DNA of 64,000 bases, from contig CAZZKJ010000005.1 in assembly GCA_964654695.1 (NCBI GenBank), forward strand, positions 3,404 to 67,403, given 5' to 3'. This DNA is from an uncultured bacterium (GTDB lineage: Bacteria; Krumholzibacteriota; Krumholzibacteriia; WVZY01). Each line of letters opens with the position of its first letter. Position 1 is the first letter of the stretch. The notes under the pieces were generated by a model. That model saw only the letters and a list, made by a program, of their open reading frames with translations. It made no database searches and was not told the DNA's origin. The position numbers were made by a program, and so were the translations under genes. Positions 2,417 through 61,898 of this stretch are shown in pieces.

Positions 2417-3751
2417 ATGCGCACCTTGGAGAAAGACTATAAATACCTTCTTCAGAACCTGATACCGTTCAGTAAGCTGCCACCGGCTAACCGCCGGAGG
2501 ATCGATGCGGCTCTTTATTCCGGTTCAAAAACGGAACTCAGAAGAGAAGCGGTTTTAGCGCTCGAAGAATTATCCTCAGCTTCTTACATGTCACGATTGG
2601 AACCCCGCTTCGAAGAGGAAAAGGTCACGCTGATTTATTCCCGAAAAAGCAGGAACCTGAAACTCAATGTGACGATACCCGAAACAGAATGGAAAAATCT
2701 TCAATTCGATCTTTCATCAAAAAGCATTGGCGTGCTTGAAAGCAAAGCTGGATTAAACAAAACGATTTCAGAATCATCTTGGTATCTTGAAAAAATACCC
2801 GGGCTAATCGACACTTTTATTGTTGATGAGAGGAATGAATCGCTTGCTTTCAAACTGTCTCGTCTCTGCGAGCATCTTGAAGAATGGCTGAAACTGAAAA
2901 ACATGGAGCTGTTCATTCAAGATGAGCATATAGGGGAATCAAAGACTGGACACGTTAAAGTCCATCCGGTTACAAAAGAAGAGATGGAATATAATCCACA
3001 GGTCAAAAGAATGAAACTCCAGGGAGAACATGCAGATTTCATTTTAAAAGGCTCAGTAAATTGGGAAAACTATGATGTTGAGGGCAAGAACATGTTTATG
3101 GTATCGATATTCGCTCTTGGAGAATTTTGGGGGATTTTGCAGACCGCACCCGTCGAAGCTGCGGAGACAAAAAGCATTCATGCCAGAGTCACCGCGGCCG
3201 CTCGAATAACTCAACAGATGATCGAGAACAGTGTAAGGCTGGAAAGCATGGTATCCCTTGACAAACTGACGGGAATATACAATCGACATTTTTACGATAT
3301 CCAGATGCCGATAGAAATAGAAAGAGCCACCCGCAGTTCAAACAAGCTGTCTATGATTCTATTGGATCTTGACGATTTCAAGAAAATCAATGACGAGTTG
3401 GGGCATAAAAAGGGAGATGAAGCCCTGGTAATAACGGCTGAAACAATAAAGAAGAATCTTCGAAAGATAGATCTTCCATTTCGTTACGGGGGAGAAGAAT
3501 TTACGATCCTGCTTCCTGGGACCGGACATCTGGAGGCCATTCATACGGCCGAGCGATTACGAGCCAGGCTGAGTACTTTTGATGCATTCAAAGACAATTC
3601 AGGGCGATCCCGGATTATAACCGCAAGCTTTGGCATAGCTGTTTTTCCCGATCACGCATCCACCGGAGACGAATTATTCATTAAAGCCGACAAGGCCATG
3701 TTCAGGGCCAAAAGGCTGGGCAAAAATCGCATAGAATTGTATATAGATTAG
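2417..3751 (+). CDS. Diguanylate cyclase (GGDEF domain, GGEEF active-site variant) with an uncharacterised ~270-aa N-terminal sensor region
   Basis: C-terminal region LTGIYNRHFYD...LLDLDDFKKINDELGHKKGDEAL...FRYGGEEFTILLPG...RAK..GKNRI. Transcribed divergently from mltD. Confidence 0.85.
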   Translation: MRTLEKDYKYLLQNLIPFSKLPPANRRRIDAALYSGSKTELRREAVLALEELSSASYMSRLEPRFEEEKVTLIYSRKSRNLKLNVTIPETEWKNLQFDLSSKSIGVLESKAGLNKTISESSWYLEKIPGLIDTFIVDERNESLAFKLSRLCEHLEEWLKLKNMELFIQDEHIGESKTGHVKVHPVTKEEMEYNPQVKRMKLQGEHADFILKGSVNWENYDVEGKNMFMVSIFALGEFWGILQTAPVEAAETKSIHARVTAAARITQQMIENSVRLESMVSLDKLTGIYNRHFYDIQMPIEIERATRSSNKLSMILLDLDDFKKINDELGHKKGDEALVITAETIKKNLRKIDLPFRYGGEEFTILLPGTGHLEAIHTAERLRARLSTFDAFKDNSGRSRIITASFGIAVFPDHASTGDELFIKADKAMFRAKRLGKNRIELYID

Positions 3752-5268: not shown

Positions 5269-5374
5269 GATGGTCCAGATTGCCGGTGGGATCTGTATTT
5301 AACTGCTAAATTTTATAATGCAGCCCGCGTATATTGATGATATATTAATCCCGTTTAAGACCGGAGCTTGATTT

Positions 5375-6001: not shown

Positions 6002-6034
6002 CGGCGTTTAGAATCATTTCATGGGGGTACTTGG

Positions 6035-24555: not shown

Positions 24556-24569
24556 CTACGCGATAAAGA

Positions 24570-25886: not shown

Positions 25887-26029
25887 AGGATGCTCTAAAG
25901 CCAGGATTGAAGCATCAATAATTAACCATTTAAAAATTCCTTAATATCCACGCGCTTATGAAGTATATTATTGCCCTGGAGTCGGGGACGCCGCTTTATG
26001 AGTTGCTTCTATTTCCTGAGGGGGAAATC

Positions 26030-26950: not shown

Positions 26951-26971
26951 TTTCAAGCAGGAGGATTTGCC

Positions 26972-27514: not shown

Positions 27515-27573
27515 TGGAAATAGATTATTTTGAAGATACGAACGATGGAAATCTGAACAACGGAGAATACAAC

Positions 27574-38440: not shown

Positions 38441-38559
38441 CCGATAGTTATGTATGGATTAGTGAATTTGGGAACATTTCCTTGAAAGGATGGCTTGATC
38501 GCTATATCGTTTGAAGGGGAACCGTTTTCCTGTTGATAAGACGTGGATCGGCAATCATT

Positions 38560-39459
38560 ATGGCGAAGAACCTGGATGCTGCGCTGGACGGATTCATGGC
38601 TTTCTTGCGTGTTGAGAAAGCTCTAAGCACAAATACCGTAGAAGCCTACGGCAGAGATCTGGCGGCTTACATCGATACTCTTGAAAGCACGGGGGCTTTG
38701 GACTGCGGAAGTATTTGCGGCGAAATAGTCGAATTGCATATGGTCAGGCTTGCAAAAAGATCTCTGCGAGCTCGTTCGAGGGCAAGAGCTTTGTCGGCGA
38801 TAAGGCAGTTTCATAGCTTTATGTTTCGCGAAGGAATGATCGGCGAAATTCCCGATGTGGCGGATCTGGTTCCCAAATTCGGTCGATCTGTGCCAACAGT
38901 TCTCAGCATCGAACAGGTGGAAAAACTGCTGGAAACGCCCTCGGGCGATAGTCCATTGGGAATGCGTGACCGAGCCATGCTTGAAATCGCCTACGGAGCG
39001 GGACTCAGGGTGTCGGAACTGTGCGGTTTGACATTCGACGAAGTCTTCGAGCAGGAATGTGTGCTGATGATCAGAGGAAAAGGAGGAAAACAGCGGTTGG
39101 TTCCTTTCGGCCGAAAAGCCGCGGCCGCTCTAAAGGGATACCTGGACGGAGGCCGCCCCTTGATTGCCAAGCATTCGATCTGCAATCACGTGTTTCTCAA
39201 CAAGAACGGCAAGAAAATCTCCCGTGTCGGTTTCGCAAAAAAGCTCAAATCATATGCCCGCGCGGCGGGTCTTGACGATGATATTAATCCTCACACCCTC
39301 CGGCATTCTTTCGCCACACATCTTCTAATCGGAGGAGCCGGTCTTAGATATGTACAGGAACTCCTAGGCCACGCTGATATTTCAACGACGCAGATATATA
39401 CGAATATAGACACCGAACATCTTATCGAAGTGCATAAAGCTTTTCACCCCCGGGCATGA
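38560..39459 (+). CDS. xerD: Tyrosine recombinase XerD
   Basis: MIRGKGGKQRLVPFG; HTLRHSFATHLLIGGAGLRYVQELLGHADISTTQIYTNI. Start set to the ATG at 38560 (MAKNLDAAL); the ORF also has an upstream TTG at 38533. Confidence 0.85.
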   Translation: MAKNLDAALDGFMAFLRVEKALSTNTVEAYGRDLAAYIDTLESTGALDCGSICGEIVELHMVRLAKRSLRARSRARALSAIRQFHSFMFREGMIGEIPDVADLVPKFGRSVPTVLSIEQVEKLLETPSGDSPLGMRDRAMLEIAYGAGLRVSELCGLTFDEVFEQECVLMIRGKGGKQRLVPFGRKAAAALKGYLDGGRPLIAKHSICNHVFLNKNGKKISRVGFAKKLKSYARAAGLDDDINPHTLRHSFATHLLIGGAGLRYVQELLGHADISTTQIYTNIDTEHLIEVHKAFHPRA

Positions 39460-47715: not shown

Positions 47716-47749
47716 ACGGCGTCGAATTTCCGTACCGATTTTTCTGCAT

Positions 47750-47785
47750 GGAAAGAGGAGCGATTAAAGCTCCTCTTCCTTTTTT
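47750..47785 (+). terminator. Rho-independent terminator after rpsA
   Basis: GGAAAGAGGAGC-gattaaa-GCTCCTCTTCC followed by TTTTTT. Confidence 0.55.
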
Positions 47786-47862
47786 CCGGGATTTTGCAGC
47801 TTGACTGTATAAATGAAAAAGGCCATGATTTATAAAAATATTTTTCAAAGGAGGTTCCGCCC

Positions 47863-48198
47863 GTGTGGCTGATAAGGAGTATCATAATACTTATTGGCGT
47901 AATAGCATTTTTATGGGTAGGCATGAACAACGCCGATCAAAAAGTACATTTCAAGTTTTTTACGGAAAACTTCGAACAGCTGTCTCTTAATCTGCTTCTT
48001 TTGATTGTTTTTGCAGCTGGAATGATTTTTTCCTTTCTCATCTCTATCATAAACGAATTTCAACTGAGAACGAACTTGAGCAAGCAAAGAAGAAAGTGTC
48101 AGAAGCTTTCAGAAGAAATTGCCGATCTGCGCAACCTACCTCTTGATGATGGAGAAGAGGATGACCGGAACAACAAAATGAGTAACGTAGATTTTTGA
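47863..48198 (+). CDS. lapA: LapA-like (DUF1049/YciS family) inner-membrane protein
   Basis: Two TM helices followed by a coiled-coil/acidic tail. Sits directly upstream of lapB, the canonical arrangement. GTG start with an AAAGGAGG RBS. Confidence 0.6.
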   Translation: MWLIRSIIILIGVIAFLWVGMNNADQKVHFKFFTENFEQLSLNLLLLIVFAAGMIFSFLISIINEFQLRTNLSKQRRKCQKLSEEIADLRNLPLDDGEEDDRNNKMSNVDF

Positions 48199-48214
48199 AG
48201 GGACTGAAGTTCAA

Positions 48215-49378
48215 ATGACCGACAATCATCTGCTGCTGCCGGTACTGGGGCTGTTGGGTTTGGCAGGTATCCTGATATTCAGCCTTATTATTCGAAGGCG
48301 GATGCGCCGTCCCTCCTCATCAAACCCATACATGGAAGCTTTAAAGCTGCTCACAGCAGGCGAAAAGGATGGAGCTTTTAAGCAGCTCGAAAAAGCCGTA
48401 AGGCAGGGAGGTGCCCCTCCGGATGCGTATCTTAGGTTGGGACGGCTGCTCCGGGAGAGGGGTTTCACCGGCAAAGCGCTGCAGATGCATAAGAGCCTGA
48501 CCGTAAATACAGCTCTCTCGCAAAGGGAAAAAGCTGATCTGATCCTTGATTTGGCCGAAGATTATGAGCGCATGGGCAAACCCGATAAGGCCATAAGGGT
48601 ATTGGAATCCGCCTCAAACCTTGGAGATACGAAATCTACGGATATATTATTTACTCTCGGCCGGCTGTATAATAAAGCGAATGAATCAGAGAAGGCCTAT
48701 GAAGTTATGAAGGACCTGAAGAAAAAAGGAGTTTTGGATGACGGAAGGCTCGCGCTGTTTCTTACAACCCAAGCCGAAAGATATATACAGGAAGGCAATG
48801 CAAAAGAAGCCTCAAAACTGCTTGGCCGGGCTTTAAAACACGACGACGGCTGCACCGCCGCTCTGGTCTATTCCGGTGATTTGGAATTTGCCTCAGGGAA
48901 CATAGACAATGCGATGCAAAAGTGGAAAAAAGCAGCTCTTACTGCTAAAGATGCCGCATTATACGCTCTCGATAAGCTGGAGCGCACTCTTTTTGAAAGG
49001 GGGAAATTCAGCGATATTGAACGAATATATCGGGAAATTATCGATAAACGCGCCGATGATGAAAATGCCACGCTGTCTTTGGCCCGTTTTTACGTAAAGC
49101 AGGGTAAGCACGATGAAGCCTTGGAGCTTTTAAAGGAATATTCGACTTGGCATCCAAAATCCATTAAATCTCTTCTCCTGCTCTTTTCAATTCTTGCAAA
49201 AAAAGCAGACGTGGATGCGATCGAGCGCTTGGTAAAAGACTCTCTTTCGCGTTTCTCGACTGAGCATACATATAAATGCACGATCTGCGGTTTTCATTCA
49301 GATACAATTAGGCAGCATTGCCCTATTTGCAATTCGTTCTATACTTTTTCCTCATCCCATGACAGCGAAGCTCTGTAA
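48215..49378 (+). CDS. lapB: LapB/YciM-like LPS-assembly regulator: N-terminal TM anchor, TPR repeats, and a C-terminal rubredoxin-like zinc finger
   Basis: TM anchor MTDNHLLLPVLGLLGLAGILIFSLII, TPR repeats, and a C-terminal YKCTICGFHSDTIRQHCPICNSF (CxxC...CxxC). Confidence 0.75.
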   Translation: MTDNHLLLPVLGLLGLAGILIFSLIIRRRMRRPSSSNPYMEALKLLTAGEKDGAFKQLEKAVRQGGAPPDAYLRLGRLLRERGFTGKALQMHKSLTVNTALSQREKADLILDLAEDYERMGKPDKAIRVLESASNLGDTKSTDILFTLGRLYNKANESEKAYEVMKDLKKKGVLDDGRLALFLTTQAERYIQEGNAKEASKLLGRALKHDDGCTAALVYSGDLEFASGNIDNAMQKWKKAALTAKDAALYALDKLERTLFERGKFSDIERIYREIIDKRADDENATLSLARFYVKQGKHDEALELLKEYSTWHPKSIKSLLLLFSILAKKADVDAIERLVKDSLSRFSTEHTYKCTICGFHSDTIRQHCPICNSFYTFSSSHDSEAL

Positions 49379-50366
49379 TACTGCATTAACCTTATTTATT
49401 ATTCTTGCTCTTTCAAGCAGCGCCCTTGCTTCATCTTTGAAAGATGCAAGGGAATTCATTTCAAACCTTCAGTTCGATCGGGCAAAAGAAACTCTAATCG
49501 ATATAGCGGTAAACTCAAAAGGGGAGGAGAAACAAAGAGCCCTGCTGCTTCTCGCTTCTCTCAAGCGTTCTTCAGATGAAGCTGAAATCTTGTACAAGGA
49601 AATCCTCGATATAGATCAATCAAGCGCAGCAGCAGGCAGCGCCCTGCTTGAAATAGCGAAAATACGCTTTGCAAGTGGAAAATATAACGAAGCTCTGGAT
49701 ATCCTTCGCAATAATCCGCAGTCGGCAAGCTCCCGTGAATACTTGTACTTTGAGGGCCTTGCGGCTTTGATGTCCAGGGATTTCAGCACTGCTAAAAATA
49801 CTTTATTATCTATAAGAAAGGGGAAATATGCTCCGTGGGCTAATCTTGCCCTCGCAGAAATCGCCGTAGAGGAAAATAACAAGGAGGAGGCATGCGGACG
49901 TTATCAGGCTCTTGCCAACGCCATGATTAATCCTGTTGCGATGTACAAGTTCGGCGAGTGTCTCGAGGGTCGGGGCAATATAGACCGGGCGGAAAAACAG
50001 TTCAATGAAATCATTCGCAATTTCGAATCAACTCCTGAAGCCGTTCTTGCGTCGGAAAAGCTGAAAGCTCTTTCAAAACGCAATCTCGTTTTAAATGACA
50101 TCTCCCACTATAAAGGCACGGATCGACTGCCTTCGGGTTTTACAATCCAATTCGGTTCTTTCCGCGACAGGAGGAACGCCATCAAGCTTGCAGAAGAACT
50201 GAAACAAAAACTTCCCGGCGTTAGAATTGATACGGACCTCGTTAACTACCGCGAGCTTCACCGCGTTCGCTACGGTTATTTCGAATCGCGCAGCGACGCT
50301 GCTGCGGAAACAGATAAAATCAAGAATAGACTGCATTTAGAACCTACGATCATGAAGATGCCCTAG
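49359..50366 (+). CDS. TPR protein with a C-terminal SPOR (septal peptidoglycan-binding) domain
   Basis: Signal/anchor peptide and TPR-like helices. C-terminal FTIQFGSFRDRRNAIKLAEELKQKLPGVRIDTD...YRVRYGYFESRSDA is a SPOR fold signature. The start overlaps the lapB 3' end by 20 nt. Confidence 0.7.
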   Translation: MTAKLCNTALTLFIILALSSSALASSLKDAREFISNLQFDRAKETLIDIAVNSKGEEKQRALLLLASLKRSSDEAEILYKEILDIDQSSAAAGSALLEIAKIRFASGKYNEALDILRNNPQSASSREYLYFEGLAALMSRDFSTAKNTLLSIRKGKYAPWANLALAEIAVEENNKEEACGRYQALANAMINPVAMYKFGECLEGRGNIDRAEKQFNEIIRNFESTPEAVLASEKLKALSKRNLVLNDISHYKGTDRLPSGFTIQFGSFRDRRNAIKLAEELKQKLPGVRIDTDLVNYRELHRVRYGYFESRSDAAAETDKIKNRLHLEPTIMKMP

Positions 50367-50368
50367 AA

Positions 50369-52993
50369 ATGAACCGCAACATCACGCCTTTAATGGCTCA
50401 GTACAAAGAAATTAAGAATAGCTACTCCGATTGCGTGCTGCTTTTCAGGGTTGGCGATTTCTATGAGACATTTTATGAAGACGCAGTTGAGGTATCGGAA
50501 ATACTAAACATCGCCCTGACTACTCGTGATAAGAAGAAAGACAACCCGGTGCCGCTTGCCGGCGTTCCCTTTCATGCCGCTGAGAATTACATAAGCCGGC
50601 TTTTATCCGCAGGCAAGAAAGTAGCCGTGTGCGAACAAGTGGAAGATCCCTCCTTATCCAAGGGCCTTGTAAAAAGAGAAGTAGTGGAAGTCATTACTCC
50701 GGGAACCGCAATGAATCCGCAGTTATTGAGCGACAGCGAAAATAATTATTGCCTGGCGGTGTGCGTTAAAGATGATTTTGCAGCCGCATCTTTAATAGAT
50801 GTGAGCACAGGAGATTTTCACTGCGGTTCGGGTCCGGTTAAAAACCTTCATTATCTGCTGCAGGGCATTAAGGTAACGGAAGTGATATGCAATGATTTCA
50901 AGGAAGTGCTGAACCCGCTGTTCGATGCGTTGGGAAGCCCATTCCAAAACAGCGACAAAGGCGCATATTTCACATCGGAGATCGCCCTTGAAGCGCTTCG
51001 AAAGCAGTTTCAGGGGACGGACTGCGAATACATTTCGGAATTGGATGAGATTGAAGGCCTGGCCGCAGGCGCGCTTCTCCATCATTGCCGAAGCATGAAA
51101 GGGGACGATTTGCCGCAGGTGGTCGAAATCAAAAGATTCGAGCCCGCAGCCCGCATGGCCCTTGATGAAGAGACAATAGCCAATCTTGAACTCTTCAAGC
51201 CTCTTAGAGGCAATTCCACCGATGCCACGCTTATTAAAATCATAGACCACACCAAGACGCCTATGGGAGCCAGGAAACTCCGGGCATGGCTGCAGCGTCC
51301 ACTGGCTGATAAGAAGAAGATAGAGGCCCGTCTGGAAGCCGTGTCTGAACTGCATGAGAACCCCTTGGTCTTGGAAGCTCTCAGTTTGAGTTTAAAAAGA
51401 ATCTCGGATGTGGAGCGTTTGGCATCCAGGATAGCCGCTAAAAAGGCCGTCCCGCGGGAACTCATTGCACTCAAAGAGTCCATCGAGAGAATTCCTTTGG
51501 TAAAACGCGCACTTGATGGGCGCAAAGCCCCCCTGCTAATTGAGCAGGCCGGTATGGTATCCGCCCACGAGACCCTTGCCGAGATTATCGACAAGGCGAT
51601 TGTTCTCGATCCACCCGGACATTTGCGCAACGGCGGAGTGATAAAAAAAGGATTCGCAGACTCTCTCGATGACCTGATAGACAAGAGCGAGGGCGCCAAG
51701 AAATGGATAGCCGGTCTGCAAGCACGCGAACGAGGTCGAACCGGAATTTCCGGACTCAGGGTGGGGTACAACCGGGTATTTGGATATTATATTGAAGTCT
51801 CCAAACTGAATTCGGCATCAGTTCCTGACGATTACATAGCAAAGCAAACACTCGTCGGCTCACAGCGCTATTATACCCAGGAGCTTAAAGACCGTGAGCA
51901 GTTGATTCTTGAAATTGAAGAAAGAAGAATTGAATGTGAGCAGGAGGTTTTTAACCGCTTGTGCGCTGAAATAGCATCGAACCTGCCTGTTCTACAACGC
52001 ACCTGCGGCGCTTTGGCGGTTATCGATTCGATTCAGTCATTGACTGCGGCGGCAATAAAATTCGGGTATGAAAGGCCAATTATAGATGATTCCAGAATCC
52101 TTGAAATCGTCTCCGGCCGCCATCCGGTTCTCGAACAAAACGTAAAAACTGCGTTTGTTCCCAACGATCTGTACTTGAATCCCGAAACCAGGCAGTTTGC
52201 GCTTTTGACAGGACCCAATATGTCAGGGAAAAGCACCTTTCTGCGTCAGTCGGCTTTGATAACCATAATGGCTCATATGGGATCATTCGTTCCTGCCGAC
52301 AGAGCGACAATCGGTATAGTTGACAAGATCTTTACGCGTGTAGGCGCCAGCGACCGTCTCAGCAAAGGGCAGTCTACCTTTCTTGTAGAAATGGATGAAA
52401 CCGCCCATATACTCGATAATATGACCGACAGTAGCCTGCTGCTCCTGGATGAAATTGGCAGGGGTACGAGCACTTTTGATGGTTTGAGCATAGCTTGGGC
52501 GGTAACCGAATATGTACTTCAGGGTATAAAAGCTCTGCCGAAAACACTTTTTGCAACACATTTTCATGAGTTGACCCAACTTAAAAACTCTTATCCAAAA
52601 CTGGTCAATCTAAAAATTACTATCAGGGAATGGGAGAACGGCATAATCTTTTTGCGAAAGATACTTCCAGGGACCAGCGAACGGAGTTTCGGTATACACG
52701 CCGCGCGCGTAGCCGGGCTGCCGGAAATTATCCTGGAGCGGGCGCAGGAAATCCTGGATTCATTGGAAACCCGAAGAGATCTGCTCTCCGATTCGGTCAG
52801 CATCATCAATAAGAATATGGGTCAATATAAATTATTTGGCAATTCCATTATAAATGAAGTAGATAGCGATCATTCATCAAGTAATACTTTACAGGCACTC
52901 AAAGAATATCTCGACCAATTTGATATTAACGACATTACTCCTCTGCATGCCCTGCAGATTCTCAAGACTTTAAAGGACATGCTGCCCCGTTAG
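50369..52993 (+). CDS. mutS: DNA mismatch repair protein MutS
   Basis: N-terminal mismatch-binding MAQYKEIK...GDFYE(T)F and Walker A GPNMSGKSTFLRQ. Confidence 0.95.
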   Translation: MNRNITPLMAQYKEIKNSYSDCVLLFRVGDFYETFYEDAVEVSEILNIALTTRDKKKDNPVPLAGVPFHAAENYISRLLSAGKKVAVCEQVEDPSLSKGLVKREVVEVITPGTAMNPQLLSDSENNYCLAVCVKDDFAAASLIDVSTGDFHCGSGPVKNLHYLLQGIKVTEVICNDFKEVLNPLFDALGSPFQNSDKGAYFTSEIALEALRKQFQGTDCEYISELDEIEGLAAGALLHHCRSMKGDDLPQVVEIKRFEPAARMALDEETIANLELFKPLRGNSTDATLIKIIDHTKTPMGARKLRAWLQRPLADKKKIEARLEAVSELHENPLVLEALSLSLKRISDVERLASRIAAKKAVPRELIALKESIERIPLVKRALDGRKAPLLIEQAGMVSAHETLAEIIDKAIVLDPPGHLRNGGVIKKGFADSLDDLIDKSEGAKKWIAGLQARERGRTGISGLRVGYNRVFGYYIEVSKLNSASVPDDYIAKQTLVGSQRYYTQELKDREQLILEIEERRIECEQEVFNRLCAEIASNLPVLQRTCGALAVIDSIQSLTAAAIKFGYERPIIDDSRILEIVSGRHPVLEQNVKTAFVPNDLYLNPETRQFALLTGPNMSGKSTFLRQSALITIMAHMGSFVPADRATIGIVDKIFTRVGASDRLSKGQSTFLVEMDETAHILDNMTDSSLLLLDEIGRGTSTFDGLSIAWAVTEYVLQGIKALPKTLFATHFHELTQLKNSYPKLVNLKITIREWENGIIFLRKILPGTSERSFGIHAARVAGLPEIILERAQEILDSLETRRDLLSDSVSIINKNMGQYKLFGNSIINEVDSDHSSSNTLQALKEYLDQFDINDITPLHALQILKTLKDMLPR

Positions 52994-53094
52994 CCCCGTC
53001 AAATTCGCCCGTTTTCCCCTGCTGGTCCATAATTTGCTAAAATATGAATGGGGATTATGCCTATTTATGTCCTGACGGAGCGAGAGTGTTATAA

Positions 53095-55392
53095 ATGGCT
53101 AAAAATTCAGGCGTTACATGTGCTATCCTCGGTGGCCGTGAAAAGGATCTGCAGATTCTGAGTGAGTTGCAGCGCCGGGATAATGTGCGCATTTCATTCA
53201 TCTATGAAAGCATACCGAATGCTATAGGTCTTGAAATCGCGGAGATTCTTGGAATAACGCGTTTTAGCAGTCCTCCGCAAGCATTTCCCGAAGATTTGGA
53301 TTTCATCATCGTATCCGAACCAAGGGAGCGTTTTAATGACATCCTCAAGCTGTTGAGCAAATCACCAGCTAAAATAATATCCTCTCAAGAAGCTTTGAAC
53401 TCGATTTGCCGGGATGAGCCGCGCGAATCTGTCGAAACCGAAGCAGCCCACGGAGATATCTATGCCATCGAGGACGCCCTGGGCGCTCTCGAAAAGATCT
53501 TCAATAAGAAAGAACTCCTCAAATTTCTTCTCGACATTGCGGTGCGCGCGGCAAAGGCATCCACCGGATCGATCATGCTTTATTCTCCGGACACATGCGA
53601 TCTTTATATCGGTTATGCTATAGGCTTGAGTGAGAAGGTAATAAAGAAAACGCGGCAAAAACTCGGCGAAGGCATCGCGGGCTCTGTCGCCAGGCAAAAG
53701 AGGGCTAAATTAATTACACTTGCACCGGATGATGTCCTCTATGAGGGCGATCGCGAAAGAGTTGATATCGGCACCTCGATTTCCGTTCCTCTCTTATGGG
53801 AAACGCGGCTTTTGGGCGTTTTAAATGTTTCTACGGCCCGAAGCGAGCGCGAACTCGATAAAAGCGATTTCGAGAATCTCAAGCGGATCTCGAGGCGCAT
53901 TTCTAGAGTCCTTTTCGAGTCTTTAAAAGTCCAGGAAACTCGAATAAACACCCACGCGCGAAACCTTGGAAATACCGTTGGAAAATTATTGGAAAAGACC
54001 GCTTCTTTCGAAGAAAAATTTTCCCTGCTTGCCGATTATTTGGGGGAAATACTGGGAATGAAGACGGTGGAGATATATCTCAATACTCATGAGGGAGATT
54101 GGTTTCTCCTGGGAGGCTCCAACAGCCGGCAGCCTCAAGGGTATGAAAAAGTACACAGCAGGAACGGTCTTCTATCAAAATGTTTCCTGGACCAGAGGCC
54201 GATCATTCTAACCGAAAAAACGGATAATGCTGATATCTCGAACGAGATATCGTCATTGATATACCATCCTTTAACCATCACGCAGCCCATTGGCGTCCTG
54301 ATAGCCGAATTTGACGAAAATTATAAGCAGCAGGAATTTCTCATGGTAAAAGATTCCGTATGTATCGAATTAGCGAGTTTTATATCATCAGAAGTAAGAG
54401 CCCGAAAGATGAAAAGAGAACTCGAGACAATGAGCATGGTTTCCGATTCAGTTCCGTCGCTTTTAACATGTAGAACTTCTGAAGAACTCGCCGAATGCCT
54501 GGCAAAGATTCTTGCGGACACGCTTGAATGCCTCCGCGTATCGGTTAAGCTCGGACGATCTTCCGACACGAGCGAATCTGTCACGAGTATCTTTGAAAAA
54601 GAAGACGTGCCTGGCATTGATTGGCAAATCGAAGACGAAAAGATATTCTCAAAACTTGCTTCTCAAAAAGAGGCTTTTTCCAAAGCAGTCCTTGCATTTG
54701 ATATTAAGATTCACCAGCGGCGGGAACCGTTTTCATCGCTGTTGGGCGTTCCCATAATGAGAAACAATGAACTTTTCGGAGGGATTATCGCATATGATAA
54801 ACGTCCTTCGGACCCCATGCAAGAAGGAGTGTTTTCGGATTTCGACCGGACAACAATAAACCATGTTCTGTCGCTTGCAGTGCCGGTTCTTGAGGCCGTT
54901 AGAAGCGAAGAACCTCTTCAGCTCGAAAAAGCGGAGTCTTCTTATGAAACCGTTCTCGAAGATAACATGTCGCGCGCCATTCGGGTATGCCAACGGGAAA
55001 TCCAAAGATCAGACAGGTACCATCATTCATTCTCCGTACTTATGTTCAAAGTCCCTTCAATTTCGGAAATGTTCGGCGATGATTATTCACATGCCCTTGA
55101 ATTGATCGAAGAGATGACCAGAGGGATTCGCACACGGACCAGAAAAACAGATTATCTCTCATGGATTGCCAAGGACAGATTCGTGCTGATATCTCTTGAG
55201 GGAACAAAAAGGATCAGATTTCTCATATCCCGCATCAAAGTCTACCTGGAGAAAGATCTGAGCTCGGCCGGCCTGGATGAGGTCAAAGGTTCAGCTCTAT
55301 CCATTGGATTGGCATCATATCCCGGAAAATCGCGAAGCGCGAAAGAGCTTTTCGTCGAAGCCGAAACCGCTTTCGATCCTGACTATGAATGA
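53095..55392 (+). CDS. Multi-GAF-domain signalling protein with a degenerate, probably inactive, C-terminal GGDEF domain
   Basis: About three GAF-like modules (e.g. LLDIAVRAAKASTGSIMLY...GEGIAGSVARQKRAKLI). The C-terminal GGDEF-fold has AKDRF (nt 55168-55182) in place of the GG[DE]EF signature. Confidence 0.7.
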   Translation: MAKNSGVTCAILGGREKDLQILSELQRRDNVRISFIYESIPNAIGLEIAEILGITRFSSPPQAFPEDLDFIIVSEPRERFNDILKLLSKSPAKIISSQEALNSICRDEPRESVETEAAHGDIYAIEDALGALEKIFNKKELLKFLLDIAVRAAKASTGSIMLYSPDTCDLYIGYAIGLSEKVIKKTRQKLGEGIAGSVARQKRAKLITLAPDDVLYEGDRERVDIGTSISVPLLWETRLLGVLNVSTARSERELDKSDFENLKRISRRISRVLFESLKVQETRINTHARNLGNTVGKLLEKTASFEEKFSLLADYLGEILGMKTVEIYLNTHEGDWFLLGGSNSRQPQGYEKVHSRNGLLSKCFLDQRPIILTEKTDNADISNEISSLIYHPLTITQPIGVLIAEFDENYKQQEFLMVKDSVCIELASFISSEVRARKMKRELETMSMVSDSVPSLLTCRTSEELAECLAKILADTLECLRVSVKLGRSSDTSESVTSIFEKEDVPGIDWQIEDEKIFSKLASQKEAFSKAVLAFDIKIHQRREPFSSLLGVPIMRNNELFGGIIAYDKRPSDPMQEGVFSDFDRTTINHVLSLAVPVLEAVRSEEPLQLEKAESSYETVLEDNMSRAIRVCQREIQRSDRYHHSFSVLMFKVPSISEMFGDDYSHALELIEEMTRGIRTRTRKTDYLSWIAKDRFVLISLEGTKRIRFLISRIKVYLEKDLSSAGLDEVKGSALSIGLASYPGKSRSAKELFVEAETAFDPDYE

Positions 55393-55504
55393 TAGTTTTC
55401 AACAGAAAAATTCCTCGTATTTGTCATTTCAACCCCCGCCTCGTTGCCAAATAAACATCTTCATGATATTGTACATTTAAGTAAACCAATTCATCGGGGG
55501 TAAA

Positions 55505-57358
55505 ATGGGCAAAATAAAGTGCCTGCCTGAGCAGATATCCCGCCAGATAGCGGCCGGAGAAGTTGTCGAAAGGCCGGCTTCAGTCATTAAGGAACTCATA
55601 GAGAATTCTTTGGATGCGGGCGCAAACGTATTGAAAATCAGTATAGCCGACGGCGGAATCGGCGCAATGGAAGTCTCCGACAACGGCACCGGGATGGCAC
55701 AGGACGATCTTCGGCTGTCATACAGAAACTTTTCCACAAGCAAGATTTCCTCTCCCGAGGATTTGTTCCGCATAAGTACTTATGGATTCAGGGGAGAAGC
55801 ACTGGCCAGTGTTTCTTCTGTGTCTAAAATGACTATAACCAGCAGTTCGAATAACAACGGCGAAGGTTGGAGCATTAATGCTGTAAAAGCCGCGAATCCG
55901 CAGATTGTTCCAGCCCCTCATGAGCGGGGAACTACGGTCAAAGTAGAGAATCTGTTCTACAATACTCCTGCGAGACGAAAATTCCTTAGATCCAATGCGG
56001 CCGAAAAAAAGAAGATATTCGATACGATTTTGACTTACGCGATGCTGTGCCCGGATATAGAATTTCATTACAAGGACGATGGCAGGCACGTACTCGATAT
56101 TTTGCCTGCGGATAATTGGAAAGCGAGAATTTCGGCGGTTATCGGCTCAACTTCAATGAAGCACATGGTCGCGCTGGAATCCGGAGATTCTAATATCAGA
56201 ATAGAGGGATATACAAGCCTCCCCGCGCTTACTCGGGCAAACAGAAGCAATCAATTCTGCTACATCAACGGGCGCATGGTCAGAGAAAAAACCATCATGC
56301 ATGCTTTGAATGAGGCTTATCGTAGAATTAACCCTCCGAAACGTTTTCCGATAACGGTTCTTAAAATACAAATGCCTTCAGGAGAAGTGGATGTAAATGT
56401 CCATCCCAGCAAATTGGAAGTCAGGCTCCATAATCCCGGCCTTGTGCATTCGGCTGTTACAAAATCTGTCCGCGCCGCATTATCCTCGAATTCGGAAAGC
56501 TCTTTCGATGTAAGTTACGATCATGAAGCCAAACATCACTCAACCCCTGGAAAGGATAATCTTGATATTTCCACACCTGAGCTTTTCAGCGGCCCGAACG
56601 CGAACGATGCCGGAGAATCCAGACCCGATGACAATATAATTTCTATCCAATCCCGGATTAAAAACGTTTACGTGGATTTCATGACCAAACAGCTTCCGCC
56701 CAAGAATGTTTCATCACAGCTTTCTCTAAGATCCGATCAATCAATTGAAGGAACAGCTCTTGACGTTGGAGAACTAAAAAATAAGCATCTTGCGGAAACC
56801 GGGCTCTTTTGGCAGTTCAACAAGAGTTTTATTTTCATTCAAGTCCACGGGGGATTGGTTATAATCGATCAGCACGCCGCACATGAGCGTATAATCTTTG
56901 ATACAAGCAGACAAAACATTGAAAAATCCATATCAGTATCGCAGCAGATTCTCTTTCCAATACATCTCGAATTATCCTTGAGTGAACTGGATGTTTTCCG
57001 CTCTTCTCGGGGCATTTTTGAAAGACTTGGTTTTGTGATTGAGCCTTTTGGCGGCAAAAGCATTCTCGTACGCGGATATCCTCAGGGATTAAAGAACTGG
57101 GAGGAAGGCAGGTTGCTCATCCAGATTTTCGATGACATAGTTCATAACCGAGTGCCTGGCAAAGATCACGGCGACAGCATACTCGCCAGCTTCGCTTGCA
57201 GGAGCGCTGTGAAAGCAGGACAAAAGCTCAGCAGCGCTGAAATGCGCCTGTTGGCTGATCAACTTTTCGCTGTCGATCATCCATACTCATGCCCTCATGG
57301 AAGACCCACTATTCAGAGAATATCTTTGAAGCAGGTCGAGAACTGGTTTCAACGCTGA
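55505..57358 (+). CDS. mutL: DNA mismatch repair protein MutL
   Basis: GHKL ATPase N-terminus (IAAGEVVERPASVIKELIENSLDAGA) and a C-terminal dimerisation domain. Confidence 0.95.
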   Translation: MGKIKCLPEQISRQIAAGEVVERPASVIKELIENSLDAGANVLKISIADGGIGAMEVSDNGTGMAQDDLRLSYRNFSTSKISSPEDLFRISTYGFRGEALASVSSVSKMTITSSSNNNGEGWSINAVKAANPQIVPAPHERGTTVKVENLFYNTPARRKFLRSNAAEKKKIFDTILTYAMLCPDIEFHYKDDGRHVLDILPADNWKARISAVIGSTSMKHMVALESGDSNIRIEGYTSLPALTRANRSNQFCYINGRMVREKTIMHALNEAYRRINPPKRFPITVLKIQMPSGEVDVNVHPSKLEVRLHNPGLVHSAVTKSVRAALSSNSESSFDVSYDHEAKHHSTPGKDNLDISTPELFSGPNANDAGESRPDDNIISIQSRIKNVYVDFMTKQLPPKNVSSQLSLRSDQSIEGTALDVGELKNKHLAETGLFWQFNKSFIFIQVHGGLVIIDQHAAHERIIFDTSRQNIEKSISVSQQILFPIHLELSLSELDVFRSSRGIFERLGFVIEPFGGKSILVRGYPQGLKNWEEGRLLIQIFDDIVHNRVPGKDHGDSILASFACRSAVKAGQKLSSAEMRLLADQLFAVDHPYSCPHGRPTIQRISLKQVENWFQR

Positions 57359-57387
57359 ATTATAGGGTCCCTCCGGATTGAAGCAAT

Positions 57388-58344
57388 ATGAAAAACACGA
57401 ATAACCGCGGTCTATCTTTACCTGCAAGCATTGCCGTAATGGGCGCCACTTGTACGAGAAAATCTCATCTGGCGGTGGTTTTGGCCGAGGCCTTCAACGG
57501 AGAAATCATATCGATGGATTCCAGGCAGGTTTACCGCGGCATGGATATCGGCACCGCCAAGGCTTCAAAGGATCAGCGAGGCGGCATAGTACATCATCTG
57601 CTGGATATTCTCGACCCCGATCAGGAGGGGAACGCAGGCACTCATGCCGTGCTCGCGTGCGAAGTCATGGAGCAAATTCTGAATGCCTCCCGCGTGCCAA
57701 TTCTGGCGGGAGGCACCGGTTTCTATTTTCGCGCATTGTTCGAGGGGCTGATAGAAATAAACATCTCCACAGAACGCCTTGCTGTTGAACGGAATGAATT
57801 GAACAAAAGGTCTATCGAGGGTCTCTACCAACAGCTTCAGTTAGTCGATCCGGCACGGGCACGGGAGGTGTCACCAAACGATCGGGTCCGGATAACCCGC
57901 GCGCTGGAAGTTTTCAACATCACAGATAAACCGATTTCCGAGCATTTTAAAAACACAGAACCCTGCACGAGTCGACGCCCCTTGAAAATCATCCTTACCA
58001 TGCCTCGATTCGATCTGCGCAATCGGATTGCAAAACGCTGTCGGGAGATGTTTCAAGCAGGGTGGATCGATGAAGTTAAAATGCTTTTATCTTCCGGATA
58101 TTCTTCCAGCTCGCCTGGGATGAACAGTCTTGGATACAGGGAAATTTGCATAGCTCTTGAGACGGGGCGAGATCCTCGAACCGAAATAGACAGGATAATC
58201 GATCTGACCCGCCAGTATGCCAAGAGACAGGAAACATTCTTTAGAAAAGAACAGAATGCAGTTCGTTTTGACGCTACTTCCGGCGAATTTCCGGAAAACG
58301 TGATTACTTATGCAGCGCGCTTCTTCACTTTAAATACAACTTGA
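57388..58344 (+). CDS. miaA: tRNA dimethylallyltransferase
   Basis: Aligns with E. coli MiaA (SMDSRQVYRGMDIGTAK). The P-loop is unusual: GATCTRKS instead of GPTASGKT. The mutL-miaA adjacency matches E. coli. Confidence 0.85.
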   Translation: MKNTNNRGLSLPASIAVMGATCTRKSHLAVVLAEAFNGEIISMDSRQVYRGMDIGTAKASKDQRGGIVHHLLDILDPDQEGNAGTHAVLACEVMEQILNASRVPILAGGTGFYFRALFEGLIEINISTERLAVERNELNKRSIEGLYQQLQLVDPARAREVSPNDRVRITRALEVFNITDKPISEHFKNTEPCTSRRPLKIILTMPRFDLRNRIAKRCREMFQAGWIDEVKMLLSSGYSSSSPGMNSLGYREICIALETGRDPRTEIDRIIDLTRQYAKRQETFFRKEQNAVRFDATSGEFPENVITYAARFFTLNTT

Positions 58345-58386
58345 CATAATCAATCTAACATGATAACAGACTTAATGTTAATAAGA

Positions 58387-58462
58387 GCGGGCATAACTCA
58401 GTTGGTAGAGTATCAGCTTCCCAAGCTGAGGGTCGCGGGTTCGAATCCCGTTGCCCGCTCCA
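58387..58462 (+). tRNA. tRNA-Gly (anticodon CCC), with an encoded 3' CCA
   Basis: Folded by hand. Acceptor stem GCGGGCA/TGCCCGC; D-arm ACTC-AGTTGGTA-GAGT; anticodon stem TCAGC/GCTGA with loop TTCCCAA; T-arm GCGGG-TTCGAAT-CCCGT; discriminator T followed by CCA. Confidence 0.85.
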
Positions 58463-58480
58463 TTTTGGAAATCTACTACC

Positions 58481-59257
58481 TTGCATAAAATATCAGGAAT
58501 ATCAGTTTTATTATCTGCTTTTCTTTTTTGGGCTTTTTCAATGTCTTGCACTACACACAGACACGCAGCGGGAAACGCATCGCTTCAAAAAGCGCTTGAT
58601 GGCTATATCCATGGTAAAACCTCCACGGCGCTGGAAGAGTTCAAGCGATTGACCGAGATGCTCGAAGGCGAAGAGCTGGCAAGGGTCTATTTATATATGG
58701 GCAGGTGTTACATCAATCTTGGCAGAATGGACGCGGCTGCCGATGCTTTCAGAATGGGCAGGGCAATAAACGGCGCCGAGCCCTTTGATGAATACCTTCA
58801 ATATATTAAAAACTCATTTGAGGCGTCTCCTAAATTCATTGTCAGGGCCGGCAGAGTTACAAGAGCTCAATTGACACATCTTTTTTCCATTTATTTCGCA
58901 GAGTATTTAAGCGGCGGCAAAACCGCCTCTGTGTCTTATGGAGAACCCGGAACACGCCTGGCGGAAAATGAAATAGACATGATCGTCGAAGCGGGTATCA
59001 TGCCTTATCTTCCGGATGAACAATTCCATGGTGAAGCTTTTGTTACCCGAGAAGCTTTTTATTTTTTCTCCGCGCTGGTTGCCCATAAGATTGCTCAGAT
59101 TGGAATCGAGAGAATGAAGACGATATTTCCCGGTTGCTATCCGGCGGACCGTAAATCCGAATACGGAGAGATTTCAGAGATAGACGGTAATTTTATATCA
59201 GGCAGAGAAGTTGTTGAAACCCTGGACAAAATAGCTCTGGAAGCAGGCTCCAGATGA
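58481..59257 (+). CDS. Hypothetical exported protein or lipoprotein with TPR-like helices and possible SLH-like repeats
   Basis: A TTG at 58481 gives an N-terminus (M)HKISGISVLLSAFLFWAFSMSC that looks like a signal peptide. The ORF-track start at 58451 would overlap the tRNA. Two ...VTR(A/E)... segments loosely resemble SLH motifs, but this is weak. Confidence 0.45.
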   Translation: MHKISGISVLLSAFLFWAFSMSCTTHRHAAGNASLQKALDGYIHGKTSTALEEFKRLTEMLEGEELARVYLYMGRCYINLGRMDAAADAFRMGRAINGAEPFDEYLQYIKNSFEASPKFIVRAGRVTRAQLTHLFSIYFAEYLSGGKTASVSYGEPGTRLAENEIDMIVEAGIMPYLPDEQFHGEAFVTREAFYFFSALVAHKIAQIGIERMKTIFPGCYPADRKSEYGEISEIDGNFISGREVVETLDKIALEAGSR

Positions 59258-60582
59258 AAGAACACCTTGAAATTATTTCTCTAAATGATCCTTCCCTGAT
59301 GGGAATAAAGGAAGACCTACTGCGAGCAGGCGACAGGATAATAGGTATTAACGGGCATAATATAGGCGATCAACTGGATTTTTATTATTACTGTGACGGC
59401 TTGGACAGGGCGTCTTTGAAAATCAGAAAACGCAATGGAATGATGCGCGAGATTACTCTGGATTCAGAAACGCTTCGGGCTCTCGATATAAAATTTGCGC
59501 CAATGAAGTTTCAAAGATGCCGCAATAAATGTCCATTTTGCTTCGTCGACCAGATGCCAAAAGGTCTTCGTCCATCTTTATATTTAAAGGATGAGGATTA
59601 CAGGCTGGGATTCCTGTACGGCAATTATACCACAATGAACGATATATCCGATACGGAGATCGATCAGATTGTTGTTCAAAATCGCCAGCCTCAATACGTA
59701 TCGGTTCATGCAATCGATCCCGGGATCAGGGAAAACATTTTTGGGCGCCCCATCAAGCGCAACATTATGGATACATTGAGAAAACTTACGTCCGCAGAAA
59801 TTGGAATTCATGCACAGATAGTCCTTTGCCCCGGATTGAACGACGGCAGGTCGCTGGAAGATACGGTGGAAGCTCTAGAAAGCCTTGGCAGTGGCATTCT
59901 GAGCTTATCCGTCGTTCCCGTCGGGCTTACACGGTACAGGGAAGGACTCCCCGAAATCAGACGTTTTAAGACGGAAGAATATCCCGTTATCATCGATCAG
60001 GTCGAATCTTTTCAGAGCGCTTTTCTGGACTCGCCGAGAAAGAGCCGTTTCGTTTTTCTATCCGATGAATGGTACTTGGGTTCGGACAGCTCTTTGCCGT
60101 CTTCGGTAGCTTACGAAGGATTTCCTCAGATTGACAACGGCGTGGGAATGTCTCGCGATTTCATAGAATCCTCGCTTCTCGATTTGGCTGATTATCCTCC
60201 TCCCATCGACTTGGGCCTTGCGGTAATCGCAACAGGGGAATTAGGAGCGCGTGTTTTCAATAATTATATTTTCCCGGCCTTGGAGAATGATGGAGTTGTC
60301 ACGATGCCGGATCTGCGAGAAGTCGAAAACAAATTTTTCGGTACCGGCGTGACTGTGTCCGGGCTTCTGGTTTTTGAGGATCTTGTCGAAGCTCTTAAGG
60401 ACATCGATGCCGATACGGTAATATTTCTTCCGCCTAATACTTTGAACTACGAAGGAAGATTCATCGACGGTCCTAATATGGAGCACTTTGCCCATGAAAT
60501 CGAAGCTTCGGTTATAATACCGGAATCTTCGCTGGTAAAGAATCTGCATTCGATGACGCAAAATGGAGGGAGAAATGCATGA
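59254..60582 (+). CDS. DUF512-family radical-SAM protein with an N-terminal PDZ-like domain
   Basis: CX3CX2C cluster RCRNKCPFC (nt ~59518-59541). The N-terminal ~70 aa look PDZ-like. It sits directly upstream of der. Confidence 0.7.
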   Translation: MKEHLEIISLNDPSLMGIKEDLLRAGDRIIGINGHNIGDQLDFYYYCDGLDRASLKIRKRNGMMREITLDSETLRALDIKFAPMKFQRCRNKCPFCFVDQMPKGLRPSLYLKDEDYRLGFLYGNYTTMNDISDTEIDQIVVQNRQPQYVSVHAIDPGIRENIFGRPIKRNIMDTLRKLTSAEIGIHAQIVLCPGLNDGRSLEDTVEALESLGSGILSLSVVPVGLTRYREGLPEIRRFKTEEYPVIIDQVESFQSAFLDSPRKSRFVFLSDEWYLGSDSSLPSSVAYEGFPQIDNGVGMSRDFIESSLLDLADYPPPIDLGLAVIATGELGARVFNNYIFPALENDGVVTMPDLREVENKFFGTGVTVSGLLVFEDLVEALKDIDADTVIFLPPNTLNYEGRFIDGPNMEHFAHEIEASVIIPESSLVKNLHSMTQNGGRNA

Positions 60583-61898
60583 AAGCTCTCCCCAAAGTTG
60601 CGATAGTCGGCAGACCCAATGTTGGCAAATCCACATTGTTCAACCGCCTCGCAGGAGGAAGAAGGGCGATTGTGCACGAAACATCCGGCGTTACCCGGGA
60701 TGTTCAACGTGCTGAAACGGATTGGAACGGAGTTCTATTCATAGTGATAGACACCGGCGGTCTGTTTTCTGGAGACAAGGATTCACTGACTATGCAAGTC
60801 GAGGAAAGGGCTTTAAAAGCAGCTTTCGAAGCCGACGCGCTCATCATGGTAGGTGATGCAAAGTCGGGATTGACCGGTGTGGATGAAGCTGTTGCTTCCA
60901 AACTTAGAAGCTCCGGTCTGCCGATTCTGGTTTGCGCAAACAAAGCGGAAAGGGGAGGCGGGGCAGGCAGCGAATTTTTCAAGCTGGGATTGGGAGAAGT
61001 ATACGAGATAAGCGCGCTTCATGGTACGGGAACAGGAGATATGCTTGATGATTTGGTGTCCGTACTTCCAAAACAGGGGCGGTTTTCCGAAAAAAGCGAC
61101 CTTAAAATCGCCCTAATCGGAAAACCAAATGTAGGCAAGTCCAGCGTTACAAACGCTCTTATCGGAACAAACGTAAGCATTGTCCATGAAAGACCGGGAA
61201 CCACACGGGACAGCATCGATCTAAAATTGAAATGGCAGGGGCGCGATCTCACGCTGGTGGACACGGCCGGTGTGAAAAGAAAATCAAAAAACCAGGATCC
61301 GGTAGTCTCTATTACGGCTTTAAAAAGCATTGAGGCAGTTAATAGGGCGGATGTAATCGTTCTCATGCTCGATGCTTCTCAACCGGTATCCAACCAGGAT
61401 TTGAAGGTTGGCGGTTACGCTCATTCCGCCGGCAAAGGAATATTAATCTGCCTCAACAAATGGGACCTGATAGAAAAAAACGACAAGACCAGCAAAATAT
61501 TTGAGGATAATATAAGAGACAAATTTTCTTTTTTGAGCTATGCCCCCATCCTGTTCATATCCGCACTTGCCGGACAGAGGATAGCTAAGATTATGCCATT
61601 GGTGTGGGAAATCAAGGAAGCCCGCGAGAAAAAGATACGAACCAGCGAATTGAACAAGATTCTTGAGCGCGTGATATCTGCGAACCCTCCGTCATATCAT
61701 GCCGGCGGCAACGGGAAAATTTATTATGGTACTCAAACGGACAGTTCACCTCCAAGATTTTCGCTTTTTGTAAACAATGCGGCCTTCTTTGACAGATCGT
61801 ACATAAGATATATTAATAACCGTCTAAGGGATCATTTTCAATTCAAGGGAACAAGAATCAGAATCAATCTCGTCGGCAAGAAAAAAGGTAAATCGTGA
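60579..61898 (+). CDS. der: Ribosome-biogenesis GTPase Der (EngA), tandem GTPase plus KH-like domain
   Basis: Two G-domains with Walker A motifs GRPNVGKSTLFN and GKPNVGKSSVTN. Confidence 0.95.
   Translation: MKALPKVAIVGRPNVGKSTLFNRLAGGRRAIVHETSGVTRDVQRAETDWNGVLFIVIDTGGLFSGDKDSLTMQVEERALKAAFEADALIMVGDAKSGLTGVDEAVASKLRSSGLPILVCANKAERGGGAGSEFFKLGLGEVYEISALHGTGTGDMLDDLVSVLPKQGRFSEKSDLKIALIGKPNVGKSSVTNALIGTNVSIVHERPGTTRDSIDLKLKWQGRDLTLVDTAGVKRKSKNQDPVVSITALKSIEAVNRADVIVLMLDASQPVSNQDLKVGGYAHSAGKGILICLNKWDLIEKNDKTSKIFEDNIRDKFSFLSYAPILFISALAGQRIAKIMPLVWEIKEAREKKIRTSELNKILERVISANPPSYHAGGNGKIYYGTQTDSSPPRFSLFVNNAAFFDRSYIRYINNRLRDHFQFKGTRIRINLVGKKKGKS

Follow-up and report, generated by a model that had tools for sequence, protein, structure and literature searches.

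A catalytically degenerate GGDEF protein encoded between mutS and mutL in Krumholzibacteriota and related lineages is a probable c-di-GMP receptor

Proteins that have kept the GGDEF fold and lost its catalysis can act as receptors of cyclic di-GMP (c-di-GMP). In PelD, a degenerate GGDEF domain binds dimeric c-di-GMP via R367, D370, and R402 (PMC8461298). BcsE likewise has a GGDEF fold that is dead for catalysis; it binds c-di-GMP via its I-site, and its output is exerted by protein-protein interaction (PMC8461298). The present study deals with a protein of 765 amino acids, here called X, which is encoded at positions 53095-55392 of a 64,000-nucleotide stretch of DNA (the window) from an uncultured bacterium of the Krumholzibacteriota, where its gene separates the mismatch-repair genes mutS and mutL. 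X carries a Rossmann-like N-terminal domain, three GAF-like folds, and a C-terminal GGDEF-like domain with an altered signature motif, and is probably a receptor for c-di-GMP and not a cyclase. PopA is a further case in which a catalysis-dead GGDEF fold binds c-di-GMP via an I-site and acts through protein-protein contacts.

Among these systems, PelD resembles X in the succession of GAF and degenerate GGDEF domains, and R683, D686, and R713 of X stand at PelD-equivalent positions with the same triad geometry, the second arginine lying 30 residues after the RxxD in X and 35 in PelD. PelD differs in its four transmembrane helices, its single GAF domain, and its location in the pel operon, whereas X is a soluble protein whose three GAFs follow a Rossmann-like N-domain and whose gene is not accompanied by polysaccharide genes. 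No match to the PelD sequence was detectable in a profile search of the PDB with the X family. The possibility that X is a PelD orthologue was rejected, since it has neither transmembrane helices nor pel genes and its neighbours are mutS and mutL. PopA has receiver domains and BcsE combines REC-like and GGDEF-like domains, but neither of them contains the GAF triplet or the Rossmann-like N-domain that are both present in X. The best structural match of X is IsPadC (5llw), in which three sensory domains of the PAS/GAF type are mounted on a continuous helical spine with a terminal GGDEF domain, an arrangement that implies a parallel dimer. The GGDEF enzyme of IsPadC is active, however, and the protein carries a bilin chromophore, while X has a dead site and shares only 11-12% identity with it. 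The tandem-GAF regulators (CyaB2, 1ykd; PDE2/5/6) also resemble X in their GAF-GAF arrays on long helices, with Foldseek E-values of about 1e-10; they differ from it in their catalytic outputs, and their GAFs bind cyclic mononucleotides. X would act like the PelD, PopA, and BcsE class, yet it belongs to none of those families. No publication was found that describes the X family or places a signalling gene between mutS and mutL, nor anything relevant on c-di-GMP together with mismatch repair, on Latescibacteria together with sigma-54, or on PATAN together with GGDEF and GAF domains.

A degenerate GGDEF domain with an invariant I-site

The initial annotation had proposed a C-terminal GGDEF fold in which AKDRF takes the place of the signature, and this assignment holds. 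The Pfam profile PF00990 scored 23.6 bits on the whole protein, just under the cut-off of 23.8, and passed it with 28.0 bits on the isolated C-terminus. GGDEF and DgcA models of NCBIfam also matched X, all of them below threshold. A profile of the family C-terminus matches solved diguanylate cyclases, first TpbB (4iob, E 4e-5) and then DosC and IsPadC. The isolated-domain score, these profile matches, and the best structural match obtained with Foldseek all place the domain within the GGDEF fold.

The residues needed for catalysis have been lost from this fold. In an alignment of 100 homologues, the GG(D/E)EF motif is missing from the whole family and its position reads [R/K/G][R/P/L]-D-T-[Y/F], with glycine at the first position in just 17% of the sequences. 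Family-wide, the metal-binding aspartate of strand 1 is replaced by lysine or arginine at position 652, and the guanine-contacting asparagine by phenylalanine at 660. The profile alignment with an intact cyclase encoded elsewhere in the window (2417-3751) sets K652 and P654 of X opposite both aspartates of LDLDDF, and F660 opposite the asparagine. X thus lacks the motif, the strand-1 metal aspartate, and the guanine-contacting residues of active cyclases, and the replacements at the catalytic site vary from one relative to another. The earlier suggestion that X is not a cyclase is well borne out by these losses.

The I-site has had a different fate. The stretch at 55141-55182, which translates as RKTDYLSWIAKDRF, runs from the RxxD motif to the dead signature. 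Column statistics for the 100 homologues show R683, D686, W690, R706, R713, and Y717 to be invariant, so that RxxD and the second arginine are conserved in 100% of the sequences. The RKTD of X aligns with the RESD I-site of TpbB and with the RKID of the window's own cyclase, and R713 aligns with the arginine of "aeRir" in 6d9m and with that of "LRARL" in the same window cyclase. R683 and D686 stay invariant even in remote relatives of 17-23% identity, where R713 is less strictly kept. Both sequence features of an I-site receptor, an RxxD upstream of the motif and a second arginine some 30-35 residues further on, are therefore found in X. Judged from the alignments, the active site of X is dead, and its I-site and second arginine are under strict constraint. 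Because R683, D686, and R713 are invariant while the catalytic residues have been lost, X is probably a c-di-GMP receptor, and the receptor role raised as a possibility in the initial annotation gains weight from the I-site conservation that it had proposed to check.

The gene at 2417-3751 encodes a diguanylate cyclase of the bona fide type, with its own RxxD I-site and an N-terminal region of 280 amino acids for which no Pfam family was matched. Because of this GGEEF cyclase, the organism is probably able to make c-di-GMP.

It could be argued that X does not bind c-di-GMP at all, the RxxD and the arginine being structural or serving another ligand, and that it is a sensor or scaffold built of GAF and Rossmann domains, with the GGDEF fold as a mere module for dimerisation or interaction. 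The weakness of the GGDEF match (23.6-28 bits) would agree with this, as would the fact that GAF1, and not the GGDEF domain, is the most conserved part of the protein. CsrD and GdpS, for example, have degenerate GGDEF domains and are not known to bind c-di-GMP. Nevertheless, the retention of R683 and D686 in the remote relatives, while all catalytic residues drifted, is the pattern expected of a functional I-site; a third I-site residue, the arginine, is fixed within the clade, and the organism carries a gene for a c-di-GMP synthase. A GGDEF fold without c-di-GMP binding is accordingly considered unlikely.

Sensory domains and PATAN-coupled relatives

An AlphaFold2 model of X built on 100 homologues was confident, with a mean predicted local distance difference test (pLDDT) of 86.7 and a predicted template modelling score (pTM) of 0.70. 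In this model, an alpha/beta N-domain (residues 7-103) is separated by a disordered linker (104-124) from three GAF-like folds, which are connected by long helices; a helix at 610-642 then runs into the GGDEF-like domain at 643-760. When the whole model was compared with the PDB by Foldseek, the top match was IsPadC, a PAS-GAF-PHY-GGDEF cyclase (E 1.5e-16), followed by the tandem GAFs of CyaB2, PDE5/6, and phytochromes. Both unusual parts of the architecture had been anticipated from the sequence, namely an unfamiliar N-terminal region of about 100 amino acids and about three GAF domains. The three domains are GAF-like in fold by AlphaFold2 and Foldseek, and only GAF1 passes a profile threshold. 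Pfam matched GAF_2 on the whole protein at an E-value of 1.9e-19, while the segment scan gave GAF_3 at 14.8 bits, under threshold, for the GAF2 segment. GAF1 is also the best-conserved region of X (GSIMLYS...LYIAYATGLSE...LGEGIAG...LGVLNVS).

The N-domain matched no Pfam family in the segment scan, and it is Rossmann-like by its fold. In an alignment of 35 N-domain sequences, G13, E16, D18, and L19 are invariant, and the helix AVGLEIAEIL is highly conserved. D38, an acidic residue closing strand 2, is conserved as well. Its glycine-rich loop has the form LGGxExDL, with invariant acidic residues, and not the GxGxxG form of NAD(P)-binding loops. This difference makes nucleotide binding by the N-domain uncertain. 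No DNA-binding or nuclease-related domain was found in X by Pfam, in the AlphaFold2 model, or in the segment scan.

The family extends well beyond the lineages in which X adjoins the repair genes. A profile search returned 598 representatives below an E-value of 1e-30, which include unrelated multi-GAF proteins; dozens of the representatives are full-length relatives. The remote full-length relatives, of 740-820 amino acids and 17-23% identity, keep the entire architecture of X together with R683 and D686, and they are not encoded near mutS or mutL. In metagenome-assembled genomes labelled Deltaproteobacteria or Acidobacteriota, the relative of X lies directly 3' of a gene for a DUF4388/PATAN protein, either alone or fused to REC. 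This arrangement was seen in four loci (L065, L066, L071, and L072) and in the metagenome loci L075-L103. The metagenome scan, which used a profile of this sister group (group D), gave 29 true loci, and in 29 of 29 a PATAN open reading frame stands upstream of the X homologue, with a gap that is mostly 0-12 nucleotides (nt) and at most 73 nt in all. The two loci of the Acidobacteriota group (L065 and L072) have a fused LptF/LptG gene after the X relative. Elsewhere the surroundings are different: in the Eisenbacteria group (B) the X relative is flanked by a Reg_prop protein and an M24 peptidase, and in another remote group it follows a weakly Ras-like P-loop protein. The PATAN-coupled proteins share the full-length architecture and the invariant RxxD with X at 17-26% identity; what sets them apart is the location of their genes, which lie just 3' of PATAN or REC-PATAN and away from the mutS-mutL interval. 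A PATAN/DUF4388 protein is the more likely ancestral partner of the X family. Two genomic lifestyles are seen in the family, one locked between mutS and mutL, apparently under a sigma-54 promoter, and the other translationally coupled to PATAN-domain proteins.

Conservation and transcription of the mutS-mutL interval

More than 200 full-length homologues of X were found by a word-index search, with 36-54% identity among the best 120, and the named sources are metagenome-assembled genomes of Latescibacteria or Krumholzibacteria. When each GTDB species was represented by one genome, 61 loci were obtained, and their neighbours were checked by tblastn with the window proteins. With two exceptions, every locus with enough flanking sequence has mutS upstream of X and mutL, together with miaA, downstream, usually within the seven-gene block lapA-lapB-SPOR/TPR-mutS-X-mutL-miaA. 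In the scanned species genomes this order is kept down to 24-35% identity of X, and an exhaustive profile search added deeper relatives in which it persists at 22% (P0152), 23% (P0132), and 27% (P0128). The lineages concerned are Latescibacterota, Krumholzibacteriota, UBP1, and further ones, amounting to about 60 species-level genomes. The first exception, a Krumholzibacteriota-like locus (L040), has a pyruvate formate-lyase-like glycyl-radical enzyme of 788 amino acids and a radical-SAM activase inserted between mutS and X (2524-5809), and X still adjoins mutL there. In the second (L048; CP070631.1, a Latescibacterota "chromosome"), X is only 295 amino acids long (5989-6876), comprising the N-domain and GAF1, and is followed by unrelated genes, with a Na+/H+ antiporter in the place of mutL. 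Either the genome was rearranged at this locus or the sequence is misassembled.

Throughout this phylum-level clade, the place of X between the two repair genes is an old and fixed one. Its recent insertion, the pattern against which the initial annotation had proposed to compare related genomes, was rejected in view of the synteny in about 60 genomes; relatives with X displaced from an otherwise intact mutS-mutL pair were not seen among them. The G+C content and the skew at X run on unbroken from its flanks, and X accordingly bears no sign of a foreign insertion.

The spacers on either side of X are consistently long. Their medians in the relatives are 104 nt (mutS-X) and 119 nt (X-mutL), about 100-120 nt against some 2-30 nt at the neighbouring junctions; in the window, 2 nt separate the SPOR gene from mutS and 29 nt separate mutL from miaA. 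When both spacers were aligned from 19 genomes, a conserved TGGTC[CT]-N5-TTGC-T appeared upstream of X. It has the GG/GC geometry of a sigma-54-type -24/-12 element, so that a putative sigma-54 promoter is recognisable in front of X by both sequence and conservation. TGG-N8-TTGC is present in the mutS-X spacer of 47 of 61 distinct loci, and TGGCTCGACTTATGC in 7 more, against a background of 27 other matches in 665 kb (about 4e-5 per nt). Krumholzibacteriota and UBP1 have the version TGGCT[CT]-N5-TTGC. In the sister clade, 6 of 22 PATAN-X operons are likewise preceded by a near-consensus TGGCAC-N5-TTGC, and sigma-54 dependence may therefore be a trait of the family. From these motifs, X appears to have its own sigma-54 promoter. 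The possibility that X is itself an enhancer-binding protein of the NifA or FhlA type was rejected, as it has no AAA+ domain, no helix-turn-helix, and no GAFTGA motif. As a side observation, TGGYHY-N5-TTGCW matches the window at two other places, 2282-2297 (- strand) and 14014-14029 (+ strand); the total of three compares with about one expected, and 9 of 100 shuffles reach three, which is not significant alone.

The X-mutL spacer holds two further conserved elements. The first, directly after the stop codon of X, resembles a DnaA box, and the -35 box of mutL follows it at a distance of about 35-48 nt; in the X-mutL spacers of L004-L023 it reads TTTTCAACAG(A/G)AA in one subclade and TTATCCCCACAA in the sister subclade, and one locus (L010) has a perfect TTATCCACA just upstream of it. 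Near-matches to this element occur elsewhere in the window (32958, 33798, and 38527), giving 4 against 0.4 expected, and two of them are inside genes. The second is a sigma-70-type promoter of mutL, conserved in the 19 aligned spacers as TTGCC...TGnTA(T/A) about 35 nt before the mutL start. The terminator scan detected no terminator-like site on either side of X. For this reason, the transcription units in the X region are drawn from promoter conservation only, and transcripts may run on from mutS into X or past X into mutL.

These results bear on a more ambitious reading, in which X would be an accessory factor or regulator of mismatch repair. Either X, prompted by c-di-GMP or by a ligand of its GAFs, would bind MutS or MutL, or sigma-54-driven transcripts would read through into mutL-miaA, so that repair capacity, and with it the mutation rate, would depend on a physiological signal. 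The mutS-X-mutL order, which about 60 species-level genomes share and which persists where X has diverged to 22% identity, speaks for such a link, as do the insertion in L040, which fell between mutS and X and left X beside mutL, and the X-mutL gap without a terminator-like site. On the other hand, lapA, lapB, the SPOR protein, and miaA share the block, and the linkage is thus not specific to repair; the block is functionally mixed, comprising lipopolysaccharide assembly, a SPOR protein, mismatch repair, and tRNA modification. Moreover, X and mutL are each preceded by a separate element, of the sigma-54 type in the one case and a conserved sigma-70 promoter in the other, X has no domain related to DNA binding or nucleases, full-length relatives in other phyla are paired with PATAN genes away from mutS and mutL, and no precedent was found in the literature. 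The repair reading as a whole is improbable, somewhat more so than a GGDEF fold that binds no c-di-GMP. Its mechanistic form, in which ligand binding switches X to sequester or license MutL or MutS, or read-through lifts mutL-miaA, and the clade thereby tunes its mutation rate, is slightly less probable still. The idea put forward in the initial annotation, that X could connect nucleotide-signal sensing to repair expression, is thus not supported, in view of the separate promoters, the missing DNA-binding domain, the mixed block, and the PATAN-paired relatives. The location is striking and conserved; most likely it reflects conserved operon architecture and not a repair mechanism.

The features of the locus are collected in the table, in which the ends of X, the end of mutS, and the start of mutL agree exactly with those first annotated, according to the open reading frame list.

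Table. Coordinates of the features in and around the gene for X (positions in the window)
Feature	Position	Strand	Remarks
X	53095..55392	+	name used for the studied protein; ATG start, 765 amino acids; open reading frame list
N-terminal Rossmann-like alpha/beta domain	53113..53403	+	residues 7-103
GAF1	53467..53904	+	residues ~125-270; GAF_2 at 48 bits (isolated segment)
GAF2	54007..54312	+	residues ~305-406; fold only (AlphaFold2 secondary structure, Foldseek tandem-GAF matches)
GAF3	54472..54894	+	residues ~460-600; AlphaFold2 fold; GAF 22.0 bits vs 22.4 cut-off
Degenerate GGDEF domain	54991..55374	+	residues 633-760; PF00990 28.0 bits as isolated segment
I-site motif R683-K-T-D686 (RxxD)	55141..55152	+	five residues upstream of the dead motif
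AKDRF in place of GG(D/E)EF	55168..55182	+	aligned to TpbB GGDEF and window-cyclase GGEEF
R713	55231..55233	+	second I-site arginine, PleD R390 / PelD R402 type; +30 from RxxD
Sigma-54-type -24/-12 element	53023..53038	+	TGGTCCATAATTTGCT (GG-N10-GC); 56 nt before the X start codon
Conserved post-stop element	55396..55408	+	TTTTCAACAGAAA; directly 3' of the X stop codon; resembles a DnaA box
Sigma-70-type mutL promoter	55444..55472	+	TTGCCA, 17-nt spacer, TG-extended TATTGT
mutS	50369..52993	+	874 amino acids; Pfam MutS_I/III/IV/V; closes the tightly packed lapA-lapB-SPOR-mutS run
mutL	55505..57358	+	617 amino acids, endonuclease type, DQHAAHE motif; Pfam HATPase_c_3, DNA_mis_repair, MutL_C
miaA	57388..58344	+	IPPT, 238 bits (Pfam)
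tRNA gene	58387-58459		between miaA and the TPR-protein open reading frame; 71.9 bits (Rfam scan)
Diguanylate cyclase, bona fide type	2417..3751	+	444 amino acids; PF00990 150 bits; intact GGEEF (RKIDLPFRYGGEEF)

Downstream of miaA, the tRNA gene is followed by genes for a TPR protein and a DUF512 radical-SAM protein and by der, plsY, and gpsA. The likeness to the mutL-miaA-hfq arrangement of Escherichia coli that had been noted for this region therefore holds for mutL-miaA and fails for hfq, which does not follow miaA here. The listed TTG start of the TPR-protein reading frame (58451) overlaps the tRNA, and its true start is probably farther downstream. The tRNA was the sole match of an Rfam scan of 46000-61000 at a permissive threshold, so that neither a c-di-GMP riboswitch nor any other RNA was found in the spacers, and the PADLOC defence models had no match. 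Nearly all genes of the window are on the + strand, the only clear exception being 364-2322, and the cumulative GC skew climbs across the profiled part (46-62 kb), which fits a long co-oriented stretch of housekeeping genes on the leading strand. At 22348-28920 stand topA, a GIDA-family gene (probably trmFO/gid), a XerC-like integrase gene, hslV, and hslU, in the order of the topA-gid-codV-clpQ-clpY cluster of Bacillus subtilis. A second XerC/D-like gene is found at 38533-39459.

Proposed function and its meaning for the family

The evidence from fold, catalytic-residue loss, I-site conservation, synteny, and promoter-motif conservation is best joined in one picture: X would be a soluble, catalytically dead signalling protein that binds c-di-GMP at its I-site, gives its output by protein contacts, and is expressed conditionally, its location having no mechanistic part in repair. 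We assign this joint reading a probability of roughly 0.5. In this scheme, X would resemble phytochrome-linked cyclases and tandem-GAF phosphodiesterases in forming a parallel dimer along its helical spine, and its I-site would bind c-di-GMP as in PelD, BcsE, and PopA. The conserved pocket of GAF1 may sense a second ligand. The combined signal would be relayed via protein-protein contacts, an output suggested by the fact that X has neither an enzymatic nor a DNA-binding one. If the sigma-54-type element is used, X would be a conditionally expressed unit needing an enhancer-binding protein.

Several points weigh against this picture. Some degenerate GGDEF proteins with an RxxD do not bind c-di-GMP. 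The sigma-54-type element is missing in a high-GC subgroup (L055, L057-L061, and L074), and in the window and the flanks of the collected loci there was no sign of rpoN, of an enhancer-binding protein, or of GAFTGA or RpoN-box motifs. PATAN had no match in any mutS-X-mutL locus or in the window. Transcriptional read-through past X, as said above, may occur, and selection for a functional link could itself be the reason why mutS-X-mutL persists even at 22% identity. Even so, a repair role is a minority possibility because the block is functionally mixed, mutL has its own promoter, and other branches of the family pair with PATAN; a direct role of X in mismatch repair has, in our estimate, a low probability. 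That X could be an active diguanylate cyclase with an unusual motif, as the GGDEF fold and the label "diguanylate cyclase (GGDEF)-like protein" given to relatives by some sources might suggest, was rejected as scarcely credible, since the two glycines and the acidic pair needed for catalysis are replaced, as are the metal aspartate of strand 1 and the guanine-binding Asn/Asp, with substitutions that differ among relatives.

To our knowledge, few degenerate-GGDEF receptors of c-di-GMP have been characterised, and none in the candidate phyla of the FCB group. X defines a large family with a fixed architecture of Rossmann domain, three GAFs, and dead GGDEF domain, and with an invariant I-site. 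Should the repair reading hold, X would be, as far as we know, the first example of mismatch repair controlled by a second messenger. Conserved promoter elements outline the transcription units of the mutS / X / mutL-miaA region in uncultured lineages. If the I-site prediction is true, the X family would represent a new type of soluble c-di-GMP effector with a testable hypothesis about its partner.

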